This document shows, one piece after another, positions 31,274 to 36,136 of a DNA stretch of 43,789 bases. The stretch comes from a virus (taxonomy: Duplodnaviria > Heunggongvirae > Uroviricota > Caudoviricetes). The notes under the pieces were generated by a model. The model worked only from the letters and a program-made list of their open reading frames with translations. It ran no database searches and had not been told where the DNA came from. The stretch spans positions 1-43,789 of the IMG/VR virus record IMGVR_UViG_2623620497_000008; one strand, written 5' to 3'. The translations under genes and the position numbers were made by a program. The first letter of the stretch is position 1. The number at the start of each line of letters is the position of its first letter.

Positions 31274-31653
31274 TCATCCTCCACCTTGATGCCAGCGTCG
31301 GGGCTATAAGCGGCCATGCTCTGCTCATAACCTTTTTGGTCATCTGTCTGTCCGAGACTAAACCCGTGTTGCAATCCGCTACGGAATGCACTGTCCTGCA
31401 GTTTGTCAGCAGACTCTAGGTGGGACTCCAGCTCGGCGATATGGTCTGCATTTTCAGCGCGCTCAACAGCCCATCGCTGAGTAAGCGAATCAAGCTCGCA
31501 GTTTTTTCTATCCAGTTCGGCGATGCGCTTCTGCGCCTTCTCCAGCGCCTCTACCAGCGCGAGGGCTTCCCACTCTTTCAGCACTACAGTGTCAAAGTTT
31601 TCGGTCTGTTTTTTGATTTTGGCAATCAGCGCCAGTTCGGTGATATCAGTCAT
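31270..31653 (-). CDS. hypothetical coiled-coil protein (127 aa)
   Basis: ORF track. Confidence 0.45.
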   Translation of the reverse strand: MTDITELALIAKIKKQTENFDTVVLKEWEALALVEALEKAQKRIAELDRKNCELDSLTQRWAVERAENADHIAELESHLESADKLQDSAFRSGLQHGFSLGQTDDQKGYEQSMAAYSPDAGIKVEDE

Positions 31654-31759
31654 GCTGCATCCTCACATTCGTGACTTTCCGGATCGTCGGCTTTGTAATA
31701 ACCGCCGCACAAATTGCAGCGGACTTCTGCCACATCGTCATAGTTAGCAGTCCCGGTAA

Positions 31760-32445: not shown

Positions 32446-32687
32446 TTGGCGGCTCCTTCGGTAAGCATGGCGATGATTTCTTCCGGGGTCTCTTTTACGT
32501 CAATGCGCTCTCCGGAGGTCATTTTCAGGATTGTCAGACCAGCGAAATACATGCTGACGATATGCTCTGCGGCAACAAACACAGGCTCGTAGACTGTTTC
32601 TGGTTCCCAGCCATATTTGCCCTGGCGCTCTACCGTTCCCCTTTGGCTTAATTTGATAAATTTCATTTCCTCACTCCCGCCAGGCAC
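32442..32687 (-). CDS. hypothetical protein (81 aa)
   Basis: ORF track. Confidence 0.4.
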   Translation of the reverse strand: MPGGSEEMKFIKLSQRGTVERQGKYGWEPETVYEPVFVAAEHIVSMYFAGLTILKMTSGERIDVKETPEEIIAMLTEGAAK

Positions 32688-32965
32688 TGGTTAAACAGGT
32701 TGGTCATTGGGTTTACGCCGCCAGGACGCTGGCGATACTGAACAGACGGATCGCTTTCGGTTACGGCTGTCGTGTCGATCAGGGTGTAGCAGTAGCTCCT
32801 GCACTCACCCGCACGCTGTACCTGGCCGTCATGGTGCATCTGCCACAGGGAGGAATTGACCACTGAAGAGTCAAGGCCGGTACCGCGGCGGATATCCTGA
32901 AAACTGCAGCCAGGATGCTGGCCGATGAAGTTAATAACGGCTTGTTTGCCCGAGTTCTTTTTCAT
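32663..32965 (-). CDS. Ren-like small winged-helix protein
   Basis: 100 aa directly downstream of P, weak resemblance to lambda Ren. Confidence 0.4.
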   Translation of the reverse strand: MKKNSGKQAVINFIGQHPGCSFQDIRRGTGLDSSVVNSSLWQMHHDGQVQRAGECRSYCYTLIDTTAVTESDPSVQYRQRPGGVNPMTNLFNQCLAGVRK

Positions 32966-33699
32966 GACCGCCCTCTCCCCAGTCCAAATTTCGCCCGAAT
33001 TTCTGCGATTTTGTTTAACCCCTGCTCCTGACTTAATGGCCGTCCACCAAGTTTTGGAATCTGCTTAACCGGCTCTGGAATCGCTTCTCCTGCGTTTAAA
33101 CGACGCACCATACGCATCAGCTCATCCTGAGCCTTACGGCGCAGCTCAGCGTCGCTGAGGCCGTTTGCGCGCATGTCTGCGTACAGTCCAGTAACCATCC
33201 AGTAGCAGGCCTTGTGCTTCAGCGTTACCGGCGTGACGTTGTGCTCTGGCCACGGATAGGACTCAGCATCCGGGTATTGCCCGCGGGTCCGGCAGTACTG
33301 GTAAACCATATCGACCAGTTCCACTGCATCAGGTAGCCCGGCAGATACGGCTGATTCCGATTTGCACCAGGCGACAAATTGACCCGGCGATGGCATGAAT
33401 GGGCGCTCCTGTTTGCGGGCAACGCGCATTCCGGCGTTGATTTGCTCCATGGAGACAATCCCGTTTTCCTTGAACGCCAGAAGCCACTGCCGGCGCATCT
33501 CGTTCATCTCCTCGGGTGTTTTGCTGGCCAGCGCCGGGAACACAGCGAGCAACTGGCGGAACAGTTCGTTGAAGATCTCCGCAGTCTTTGCCGCATGGCG
33601 CTTTACTGCCTGCTCGTCCTGCATTTCAGGAAGCCCGGCAGCCACGCGCTGGAAGTTTTCCCGGTCGAAGTTGTGCATGCTTTCAGCGATTGATTTCAT
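32962..33699 (-). CDS. P: replication protein P (DnaB helicase loader)
   Basis: Near full-length similarity to lambda P (FDRE...MEQ(I/V)NAGMRVAR...PSPGQFVAWC...RLNAGEAIPEPVKQ(I/L)P...AEI(R/K)AKFGL). Confidence 0.85.
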   Translation of the reverse strand: MKSIAESMHNFDRENFQRVAAGLPEMQDEQAVKRHAAKTAEIFNELFRQLLAVFPALASKTPEEMNEMRRQWLLAFKENGIVSMEQINAGMRVARKQERPFMPSPGQFVAWCKSESAVSAGLPDAVELVDMVYQYCRTRGQYPDAESYPWPEHNVTPVTLKHKACYWMVTGLYADMRANGLSDAELRRKAQDELMRMVRRLNAGEAIPEPVKQIPKLGGRPLSQEQGLNKIAEIRAKFGLGRGRS

Positions 33700-34724
33700 T
33701 CGAGCACCCCATAAATCCAGTCAGTGTTGTTCAGGTCGACTTTTGGCTTCCCGGCAACCTGAACCCCTGGCGCGCTGCGCTGCATGGTTAGCTTGTCCCA
33801 CTGCTTGCGCAGCGCATCAGGGCTCAGGATGTTGCGATGCCAGAACGAGTCTTTGCTGGCCCAGTCGTACATGGCGCAGATATCCTGGTGGCTGCGGTTG
33901 TCGATCTGGCGCATCAGTCGAACCGTGTTTGACCAGGCGGTCATGTCAGGGGATTTGCAGGTTGGGTTGATCATCCTGACCCTGGAGAAAATCCACTCGG
34001 CAACGCGGACGTCTTCGGCGTTTCCCCACTTGCTTCCGCTGGGTGTGTAAACCGCAGCATCAGGATGAGCAGACAAAAATTTCTTCAGGCGGGCGTCAGA
34101 GGATTCGCCAGAATTCTCGGACGAAGATCTTTTAATGTTTTTATTCTTGTTATTACCTTCTTGTTCATGTTGTGCGGTTGTTTGTGCGGCTTCATGTGCG
34201 CCATCATGTGCGGGCACCACCTTCAAACCCGCGCCATTGCTGGGCTCGCCATGTGCGGAAGTATGTGCGGCTTCATGTGCGGCTTCATGTGCGGGTAAAT
34301 TGTCTGTTTTTTGAGCATATTCTGCAAAATTTGTGATGGTGATCACTCTACCTTTTTGCTTCTCACCTTCGATAGAAATCATCCCTTCGCGCACAAAAAC
34401 AGCCAGCATTCTCTCCACTGAATCGCGACTAGTAGGATTCCCTTTCCGGTCGCAAAGCTGCAGCCCTAAATCGGCCGCTGTGACCACCAGTTGTCCGGGC
34501 AGCAGTGACCACTCATGACCTTTGAAAGTCGCTTTGAATGGCTGACGAGCAGCATTAAGCAGCAGGTTTTCCCACAGGGTTCTGAGGTACACATCTTTTG
34601 CCCAGGACTGCTTGAGAACGCTCCGGTACAACGGGATGTAGCCAGATTTCTGGTTTTCCATCCGGTTGCTCCTGAATTGCCCCGGCGCGGCGCCGGGAAA
34701 CTTGAGTATTTCTGCGGTGTTCAT
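33696..34724 (-). CDS. O: replication initiator O-like protein containing origin iterons
   Basis: 342 aa; N-terminal DNA-binding-like domain, internal HEAAHEAAH repeat encoded by the iterons; immediately upstream of P. Confidence 0.65.
   Translation of the reverse strand: MNTAEILKFPGAAPGQFRSNRMENQKSGYIPLYRSVLKQSWAKDVYLRTLWENLLLNAARQPFKATFKGHEWSLLPGQLVVTAADLGLQLCDRKGNPTSRDSVERMLAVFVREGMISIEGEKQKGRVITITNFAEYAQKTDNLPAHEAAHEAAHTSAHGEPSNGAGLKVVPAHDGAHEAAQTTAQHEQEGNNKNKNIKRSSSENSGESSDARLKKFLSAHPDAAVYTPSGSKWGNAEDVRVAEWIFSRVRMINPTCKSPDMTAWSNTVRLMRQIDNRSHQDICAMYDWASKDSFWHRNILSPDALRKQWDKLTMQRSAPGVQVAGKPKVDLNNTDWIYGVLE
34171..34294. repeat. candidate replication origin: two arrays of four 12-bp iterons (ATGTGCGG core) 45 bp apart, flanked by an AT-rich tract (34127-34170)
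   Basis: TGTGCG(G/C) at 34171, 34183, 34195, 34207 and 34252, 34264, 34276, 34288 with exact 12-bp periodicity. Confidence 0.6.
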
Positions 34725-35518
34725 GCTTCACTCTCCCAGCCGGCCTCTTTCAGGAATTCGCGATAGTTATCCAGGATGGCGCGCGCATCAGCTGGCAGTT
34801 CAATGTCAGCCTGATCAGCGACTATCTGGAGAAACTGGCGCGCCTTTGCTGCGCTAAACTGCGGCAGCGCCGCGCTGCGGGTTAATTTCGATTTACCTGA
34901 CGCTCTGGCCTTATCCATCTGGCGAACAGCTACAGAGGCCGCCTGTGGGCCGTGCTCGCGGGATAAAGCAACCGCGGTTGTCGGGGATACTTCGCCAGCA
35001 CGAACCATGCTGATCAGCTCTTCTCCGCAGGTCAGCAAATGCAGGTGATAGTCGACGTCGGACAGAGAACGCTTAACCTTCTTCGCGATCTCGTCCGGCT
35101 CCCACCCCTGATTTCTCAAACGCTGATATGCAGCTGCGCGTTCCAGAGCAGTGAGAGGCTTTCCCTGGTTCCGGGTAACCATAAAGGCGATCCGGTCAGC
35201 TTCGTTCCCGACGAAGTCTTTGCACTCAAGACGGATGATGTCAGCACCTGCTTTCGTCGCTTCAATGGCGCCGTAATAGCGGTGGTGGCCGTCGATAACC
35301 TTCACGCCCTTCTCGGTAACCTGGACGTCCAGCGGCGGCACCGATTCGCCAGCGATAAACGCATCGCGGAATTCTGCGACGTGATCCTGGTCGATTTCGC
35401 GGATATTCAGGCCGGGCTCGACGTACAGCTCTGACAAAGGAACCGTGTAAGTTTTGTTAACCACCGTTCCGGTTCCGTTTTTGTCTTTGTGCTTGTAAAG
35501 CTGGTAAAGTGAACTCAT
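34721..35518 (-). CDS. ParB-like nuclease domain protein
   Basis: 265 aa; VIDGHHRYYGA motif typical of the ParB/Srx fold; AGGAG SD. Confidence 0.55.
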   Translation of the reverse strand: MSSLYQLYKHKDKNGTGTVVNKTYTVPLSELYVEPGLNIREIDQDHVAEFRDAFIAGESVPPLDVQVTEKGVKVIDGHHRYYGAIEATKAGADIIRLECKDFVGNEADRIAFMVTRNQGKPLTALERAAAYQRLRNQGWEPDEIAKKVKRSLSDVDYHLHLLTCGEELISMVRAGEVSPTTAVALSREHGPQAASVAVRQMDKARASGKSKLTRSAALPQFSAAKARQFLQIVADQADIELPADARAILDNYREFLKEAGWESEA

Positions 35519-36107: not shown

Positions 36108-36136
36108 AATATACATATTGTATTCTTTTCTTGCAA
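36108..36136 (-). promoter_or_regulatory. pR-like promoter: -35 TTGCAA (36131-36136), 17-bp spacer, -10 TATATT (36108-36113)
   Basis: Hexamers identical to the pL candidate; overlapped by operator site 1. Confidence 0.5.

Follow-up and report, generated by a model that had tools for sequence, protein, structure and literature searches.

In phage lambda the replication origin consists of four 18-bp hyphenated inverted repeats (iterons), each bound by two O molecules, that are followed by a 39-bp AT-rich region (PMC6022878, PMC7466680). In Salmonella phage L, six imprecise 11-bp repeats with the unit TGTCCAACGGA, located in gene 18, were described by Zaworski et al. (2020, PMC8022706) as the likely origin, and a rep_origin feature is annotated at 31650..31726 in the L record MW013503. 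Four repeats of ~20 bp were reported for P22 (PMC8022706). The locus analysed here lies in IMG/VR record IMGVR_UViG_2623620497_000008, whose 43,789 nucleotides (the window) were studied at full length. It features two arrays of short direct repeats and an adjoining AT-rich tract inside an O-like replication gene. With a probability of roughly 80%, judged from sequence comparison, the arrays are the O-binding part (the iterons) of the putative origin of this Klebsiella lambda-like phage, and the AT-rich tract is its unwinding element.

The preliminary description of the window had placed eight TGTGCG[GC] cores on the plus strand, in two 4-unit arrays with exact 12-bp phase and a 45-bp offset between the arrays. 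A pattern scan and Tandem Repeats Finder confirm this layout. All eight core positions are exact (Table 1), and Tandem Repeats Finder determined a period of 12 for both arrays. The unit at 34195 is the one of the eight that ends in C on the plus strand. In a repeat search the two arrays come out as 44-nt copies with 89% identity at a distance of 81 bp. On the gene strand the unit is (C/G)CGCACA followed by 5 variable bases, with the consensus CCGCACAnnnnn at a 12-bp period, and it is read in frame as xxC GCA CAy. The total number of TGTGCGS matches in the whole window is unremarkable (24 vs 16.3 expected from shuffles), however, 8 of the 24 are on one strand inside 124 bp and in exact phase, where the shuffle density predicts ~0.02. 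Arithmetic from the same density gives a Poisson P of ~1e-18 for at least 8 matches in 124 bp. The repeat search found no inverted repeats within the arrays, and the units, which repeat directly, have no dyad symmetry. A ninth core, inverted and located at 34389-34395, was judged to be a chance occurrence and is not kept in the alignment of relatives. The other direct and inverted repeats of the gene are short two-copy matches that show no conservation. An RNA element was also considered and rejected; Rfam gave just a sub-threshold miRNA match, outside the arrays.

The arrays occupy codons ~144-185 of 342 and translate to PAHEAAHEAAHTSAH...PAHDGAHEAAQTTAQ in the linker of the O-like protein, which is the His-Glu-Ala repeat linker that had been noted earlier. 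The repeats might be merely a low-complexity peptide linker (His-Glu-Ala-Ala) that was made by slippage and is without DNA function. Slippage does happen, as the unit number shifts by 12-bp steps in some relatives (6+5 units in locus L005, IMG/VR 2588254056_000003, and 5+4 units in locus L020), and the array region encodes a linker that is probably disordered. The variation, however, is opposite to that of protein-level selection. It was determined in a set of close relatives, 80 from IMG/VR together with CUS-3, HF4s, and one Stx2a phage, which give 67 distinct sequences of the N-terminal domain (N-domain) and origin. The N-domain shows an ordinary protein pattern, in which 79/124 third codon positions and 36/248 first and second positions vary. 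None of the 16 third positions inside the eight cores varies (Fisher p = 4.7e-7 vs the N-domain), while in the codons between the cores 18/24 first and second positions vary (p = 9e-10 vs the N-domain), which exchanges the residues E, T, G, D, K, A, and S for one another. In 8/8 units the core Ala is encoded by GCA, compared with 3/24 elsewhere in the gene. Because the synonymous sites of the cores are fixed while the amino acids between the cores change, the constraint on the repeats acts on DNA and not on protein. Additionally, the geometry persists in lineages whose array peptides are very different (PDEPCDKPSD, VEGSDEPPVE, EVTNEVTKEVT), and the 11-bp units of phage L are out of frame, so that no peptide repeat is possible there. 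Cores with GCA and cores with GCG both encode Ala-His, yet they are fixed according to residue 101 of the N-domain. Since the difference between these two classes is synonymous, the linker peptide cannot be what is selected, and a linker without DNA function is regarded as extremely improbable.

The layout is not confined to the close relatives. The comparison also took in three more divergent phages (Yersinia 29.18, Salmonella S.Inf 5-2, and Enterobacter ENT1), 37 prophage loci in genomes of GTDB species, and a further 41 IMG/VR loci. The geometry 12,12,(12),45,12,12,(12) followed by the AT tract is found in 150 of 165 loci, across Enterobacterales, and the loci that fail it are contigs that are broken off or have degenerate cores just below the scoring threshold. 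Iteron number, which the preliminary description had proposed to compare among relatives, is 4+4 (51) or 3+3 (47) among distinct sequences. The rare unit numbers of 6+5 and 5+4 still keep the 45-bp offset. An additional, out-of-phase GCGCACA core precedes the first unit of array B by 9 bp in HF4s (locus L003) and ~10 IMG/VR loci, and its counterpart in CUS-3 is the near-copy GCGTACA. The core itself differs between groups. CCGCACA is found in Klebsiella, E. coli, Xenorhabdus, Proteus, Brenneria, and others. Cedecea, Pantoea, Buttiauxella, Yersinia vastinensis, and others have CCGCGCA(TAA), while S.Inf 5-2 and part of the Pantoea loci have CCGAT(G/A)A; the remaining core types are CGATACA, GAGGTAAC, and G(T/A)CGA(A/G). 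The array peptides are entirely different between core groups (AH.., PDEP.., EVTN..). The E. coli version is present in 281/5426 complete E. coli genomes, where it is always annotated just as 'replication protein', with a median of two places per genome that could be either two prophages or self-matches of the arrays.

Comparisons with other phages reveal which part of the locus the arrays travel with. The window matches CUS-3, HF4s, JEP4, Kapi1, TL-2011a, and 48 Stx2a-converting phages only at 34138-34674, with ~81% identity, and this span consists of the N-domain, both arrays, and the AT tract. In CUS-3, HF4s, and one Stx2a phage an unrelated C-terminal domain (C-domain) follows directly after the AT tract, and the C-module of S.Inf 5-2 is also replaced. 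CUS-3 and HF4s have a DnaB-like helicase gene where the window has P. Lambda is the reverse case, in which the nucleotide homology of O to the window begins right after the AT tract. The gene upstream of O differs as well; there is none or a small open reading frame (ORF) in CUS-3 and HF4s, a KilAC antirepressor gene in the Yersinia phage, and a ParB-like gene in the window. Because the C-domain and the upstream genes swap while the N-domain, arrays, and tract persist, the arrays belong with the N-domain. Inheritance of the arrays and the AT tract follows the N-domain, independently of the adjacent genes. This bears on the alternative that the repeats bind a protein other than O, either the product of the upstream ParB-like gene (34721-35518) or a host factor. 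The ParB-HTH gene adjoins O and ParB proteins bind repeated sites, and the motif AGYAATGRCGCGG in the insert between the arrays is constant across N-domain classes, as a host-factor site would be. CUS-3, HF4s, the Yersinia phage, and phage L, however, keep the arrays with other genes or none at the ParB position. The core changes with the recognition helix of O, unlike a host-factor site, and a host factor is possible for the 33-bp insert only. Binding of the repeats by a protein other than O is considered very unlikely.

The core sequence covaries with residue 101, which is located in the predicted recognition helix of the N-domain. There are 111 distinct combinations of N-domain and array. 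D101 always occurs with CCGCACA (74/111) and H101 always with CCGCGCA (20/111; one sequence has the consensus CCGAGCA), and Q or K at this position occurs with the other cores (CCGATRA, CGATACA, GAGGTAAC, GWCGAR; 17/111). Locus L020 features two units with CGCGCA cores despite D101. In the N-domain alignment, positions 83 and 101 alone fully separate the CCGCACA phages from the CCGCGCA phages, and overall N-domain identity overlaps between the classes, with a minimum of 63% within the first class and a maximum of 86% between classes. In one Yersinia pair the first 80 residues are nearly identical, yet residue 101 and the core differ. An AlphaFold2 model of residues 1-141, for which the underlying alignment is shallow (67 homologous proteins, mostly truncated), features a winged-helix topology with, in this order, helix 45-60, three strands, helices 83-89 and 100-113, and a beta-hairpin at 116-130. 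Both separating positions fall within the predicted helix-turn-helix; helix 2 begins with residue 83, and residue 101 comes second in helix 3 (100-113), which is the usual recognition helix. No PDB relative was found by sequence. The invariance of synonymous sites in the cores, the co-inheritance with the N-domain, and the covariation with residue 101 all support the earlier candidate, a putative origin inside the O-like gene.

The AT-rich tract that had been noted beside the arrays is borne out by base composition, with 25% GC at 34120-34159, the lowest value within 33500-35000. Nearest-neighbour energies place the 40-mers of the tract among the 0.3% least stable in the window, and the duplex stability has a z of ~3.2-3.4, in the top 0.1-0.4% of least stable segments. 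The tract includes two copies of TTCTTGTT (34144-34151 and 34158-34165); on the gene strand it reads CATGAACAAGAAGGTAATAACAAGAATAAAAAC, with two AACAAGAA copies. As in lambda, the tract comes after the arrays in the direction of the gene. All core classes and both C-domain types retain it, and in S.Inf 5-2 and ENT1 the shared string GAACAAGAAGGTA is read in a different frame (QNKKV vs EQEG). Third codon positions in the tract vary at 3/13 among the close relatives, compared with the 79/124 of the N-domain, and the changes are mostly A-to-T or T-to-A. This pattern suggests that the tract is conserved as DNA, as expected for an unwinding element, and a recombination linker between modules would also fit. 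The tract is also a mosaic breakpoint (34127-34140; L001 ~1495-1510; L084 ~655-680) at which E. coli-phage homology stops and lambda-O homology starts, and it may additionally serve as a recombination joint between the origin/N-domain and the C-domain/helicase-loader modules. Phages with a non-lambda C-domain feature an inverted repeat of a C-run and a G-run directly after the AT tract, e.g. CCCCCCTACCCCCCAATGGGGG, which encodes the peptide PLPPNGGG. This inverted repeat is kept across N-domain classes (L001 ~1480-1500, L086 2055-2080, L087 2000-2020, L116, L119, L121).

The two arrays are separated by an insert with a constant length. Nearly all relatives share the 45-bp offset (12 + 33), irrespective of unit number and core. 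The insert includes the motif AGCAATGGCGCGG on the gene strand (plus strand 34229-34241). The form CCAGYAATGRCGCGG, which encodes the peptide S-N-G/D-A-A/G, is common to N-domain classes that are ~40% identical and to phage L (24%). The motif is unchanged when the core changes (window; L085-L124; L125 4684-4716). The insert may be bound by a host factor, provide a second contact for the initiator, or matter as a peptide motif. An IHF site was considered, however, inspection by eye gave no convincing match to the consensus on either strand of the insert.

The comparative evidence reveals just a DNA element that is matched to the N-domain, and not a replication start. The O N-domain could bind the arrays in a main role other than origin firing, for example autoregulation or roadblock of O-P transcription, handcuffing copy control, or titration of O, with the true start located elsewhere. 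In Stx phages some iterons are weakly bound yet needed (PMC7466680), and iterons can have accessory roles. The arrays, however, occupy the ori-lambda position, a conserved and unstable AT tract always comes after them, and the N-domain, arrays, and tract move as a single module. Repeat and pattern searches found no second repeat cluster near the arrays. The lambda iteron consensus is absent in and near the gene even with 3 mismatches allowed, and there are no DnaA boxes in or near the gene. A start elsewhere is judged to be unlikely, although less so than the two alternatives above.

If the arrays are the iterons of the origin, replication could be initiated as follows. The O-like protein would be made from the rightward-operon transcript, which reads leftward through the array region. 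Its N-terminal winged-helix domain would recognise each 12-bp unit via the 6-bp core CGCACA, and D101 at the start of the recognition helix would read the fifth core base. The direct repeats without dyad, together with relatives that often have three units per array, suggest that the protomers most likely bind one per unit and head to tail, as 4 + 4 around the fixed 33-bp insert. In its 12-bp pitch the arrangement resembles the tandem binding of winged-helix proteins of the OmpR/PhoB type. Relative to whole turns of the 10.5-bp helical repeat, 12 bp and 33 bp are each ~1.5 bp too long, and successive sites would be rotated by ~51 degrees. Since the 12-bp pitch is larger than the helical repeat, the DNA would be untwisted or wrapped as the protomers line up. 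The resulting stress would open the adjoining AT tract of low stability, and the lambda-like C-terminal domain would then deliver the P-like protein with host DnaB.

Several points weigh against this reading. The conserved 33-bp insert is left unexplained by the proposed origin model. The confidence of the structure model is moderate, with a mean pLDDT of 65.8 (core 70-84), and Foldseek matches to the PDB are generic and weak (E >= 7e-3), all of them to winged-helix DNA-binding domains, so that no specific family can be assigned. The helix codons are ~130-250 bp from the arrays, and linkage together with shared ancestry could explain part of the covariation. The steps of one protomer per unit and of untwisting come from geometry alone, and lambda O binds as dimers (PMC7466680, PMC6022878).

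Table 1. Features of the putative origin and of the adjoining genes in the window (position 1 is the first nucleotide of the window).
Feature	Position	Strand	Basis or remark
Array A, four 12-bp units	34252..34294	-	gene-strand CCGCACA cores at 34288, 34276, 34264, 34252
Array B, four 12-bp units	34171..34213	-	cores 34207 CCGCACA, 34195 GCGCACA, 34183 and 34171 CCGCACA
Inter-array segment, tail of last A unit plus 33-bp insert	34214..34251	.	constant offset, motif
AT-rich tract, presumed DNA-unwinding element	34127..34170	.	GC, duplex stability, conservation
O-like replication initiator gene, 342 aa	33696..34724	-	ORF; Pfam Phage_rep_O; PHROGs
N-terminal winged-helix DNA-binding domain, aa 21-132	34329..34664	-	Pfam and AlphaFold2 model
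Predicted recognition helix, aa 100-113, RDSVERMLAVFVRE	34386..34427	-	AlphaFold2 model; D101 codon 34422-34424
Lambda-O-like C-terminal domain (SSENSGESSD... to end)	33696..34126	-	presumed P interaction
Lambda P-like helicase-loader gene, 245 aa	32962..33699	-	Pfam Phage_lambda_P, E 2e-60
ParB-like protein gene, 265 aa	34721-35518	-	ParB HTH domain; PHROG 1033, E 1.7e-84
pR-like promoter candidate	36108..36136	-	consensus match only: TTGCAA, 17-nt spacer, TATATT

The O-like gene is 98-99.7% identical to that of the Klebsiella temperate phages 2b LV-2017, Mulock, and others. Pfam Phage_rep_O (PF04492) matches aa 21-132 of its protein with an E-value of 1.5e-12 (48.3 bits vs a cutoff of 28.7). 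The protein is also matched by the PHROGs families 'replication initiation O-like' and 'DnaD-like helicase loader', with the 'O-like' families PHROG 277/391 covering aa 99-340. The N-terminus MNTAEILKF (34698-34724, minus strand, aa 1-9) resembles MTNTAKILNF of lambda O, and the domains are 22% identical overall. This end of lambda O is the ClpX recognition signal, and turnover of the initiator by ClpXP may be conserved. Residues 1-30 have low confidence in the AlphaFold2 model and are probably disordered. The homologues of the N-domain in protein databases (P0001-P0067) are mostly labelled 'partial', with 146-211 aa, and seemingly end in or just after the arrays. Short-read assemblies may tend to break at the array repeat, and the arrays may in this way explain the frequent breaks of assemblies and protein predictions inside the O-like gene.

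The ParB-like gene is located between cII and O and has a 4-nt overlap with the start of O. Further upstream there are cII-like and cro-like genes, the pR-like promoter match, and a divergent cI-like repressor gene (LexA/S24-type, assigned by eye). Transcription from the pR-like candidate would cover cro, cII, the ParB-like gene, O, and P and would thus cross the arrays. Downstream of P, at 32663-32965 on the minus strand, a 100-aa protein is encoded that matches a MarR-family regulator PHROG (E 1.4e-29). This protein also has a weak match to the Ren-like exclusion family, and its position is that of lambda ren.

No description of CCGCACA arrays was found in the open-access literature. One lead (PMC6118388) concerned the iterons of an IncX1 plasmid, and the occurrence of CCGCACA in PMC6022878 is a PCR primer. 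A wider proposal, which is tentative and stands well below the origin assignment in likelihood, is that the locus represents an origin architecture of its own that is widespread among Enterobacterales prophages, in which a head-to-tail winged-helix polymer would form on two arrays (units of 11-12 bp) to either side of a conserved 33-bp module, with untwisting of the DNA and specificity set by residue 101. If this were true, the architecture would be shared by phages of Klebsiella, P22-like phages of E. coli, and many Stx2a phages, and the 33-bp module may be a host-factor site or a second initiator contact. The origin would be opened by imposed untwisting and not by the dimer-on-palindrome O-some of lambda. 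Specificity would lie largely in one residue, with D101 reading A and H101 reading G at core position 5, and origin specificity and incompatibility could then be readable from sequence and reprogrammable. The analysis provides a sequence-level origin annotation for a temperate phage family in which the records examined label the region just as a 'replication protein' CDS, and the tracking of core base 5 by residue 101 is a testable specificity rule. The arrays could also help to type the replication modules of Stx and Klebsiella prophages and to predict replication incompatibility.

The putative origin is a member of the known lambdoid intragenic class, of the short-direct-repeat type found in phage L. 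The parallel with ori-lambda that was drawn in the preliminary description is supported, with qualifications; the intragenic position, the order of elements, and the shorter units stand, while the palindromic iterons of lambda are absent and the insert has no lambda counterpart. As in ori-lambda and in the Stx phages 933W and P27, which have 6 iterons, the putative origin is located midway through the initiator gene. The order of N-domain, array A, insert, array B, AT tract, and C-domain matches the lambda order of N-domain, iterons, AT tract, and C-domain. The N-domain is homologous to that of lambda (PF04492), the C-domain and the P gene are directly homologous, and pR transcription would cross the site in both. 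Unlike these shared features, the N-domain is only 22% identical to lambda O. The lambda iterons are ~20-24 bp apart, whereas the window features eight direct units of 12 bp that lack a dyad and have a core of 6-7 bp, in two arrays, and the fixed 33-bp insert between these arrays is without a lambda counterpart. The 18-19-bp iterons with dyad symmetry that characterize lambdoid origins are absent, and odd unit numbers (3+3) are common in the relatives. The two systems present homologous initiators on contrasting sites, dimers on palindromes in lambda and tandem direct repeats here.

The iterons of theta plasmids are direct repeats that are bound by monomers of winged-helix initiators (RepA, RepE, pi) and that adjoin an AT-rich unwinding element (reviews PMC4980987, PMC5043065). 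Plasmid iterons are ~17-22 bp in length, are spaced by roughly two turns (~22 bp), and are located outside the rep gene, whereas the units in the window are 12 bp and intragenic. A Pfam scan gave no match of the O-like protein to a plasmid Rep family.

P22 gene 18 likewise features an intragenic origin with its own repeats in the O-like gene of a lambdoid phage, and CUS-3 and HF4s, which bear the origin type of the window, are P22-like phages. The closest described arrangement is that of phage L. The L unit TGTCCAACGGA is 11 bp and out of frame, whereas the window unit CCGCACAnnnnn is 12 bp. L gp18 is 24% identical to the N-domain of the window over 133 aa (pairwise E 7e-6), which is distant homology at best. 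The published account of the L origin, which is also putative, mentions neither the two-array layout nor the insert (PMC8022706). The L repeats are nevertheless arranged as 3+3 units with an 11-bp spacing and an offset of 44, compared with the offset of 45 in the window, so that the insert is again 33 bp. The L insert carries CCAGTAATGACGCGGC and that of the window carries CCCAGCAATGGCGCGGG. In phage L, as in the window, the AT tract follows right after the arrays, and the O-like gene is followed by a helicase gene.

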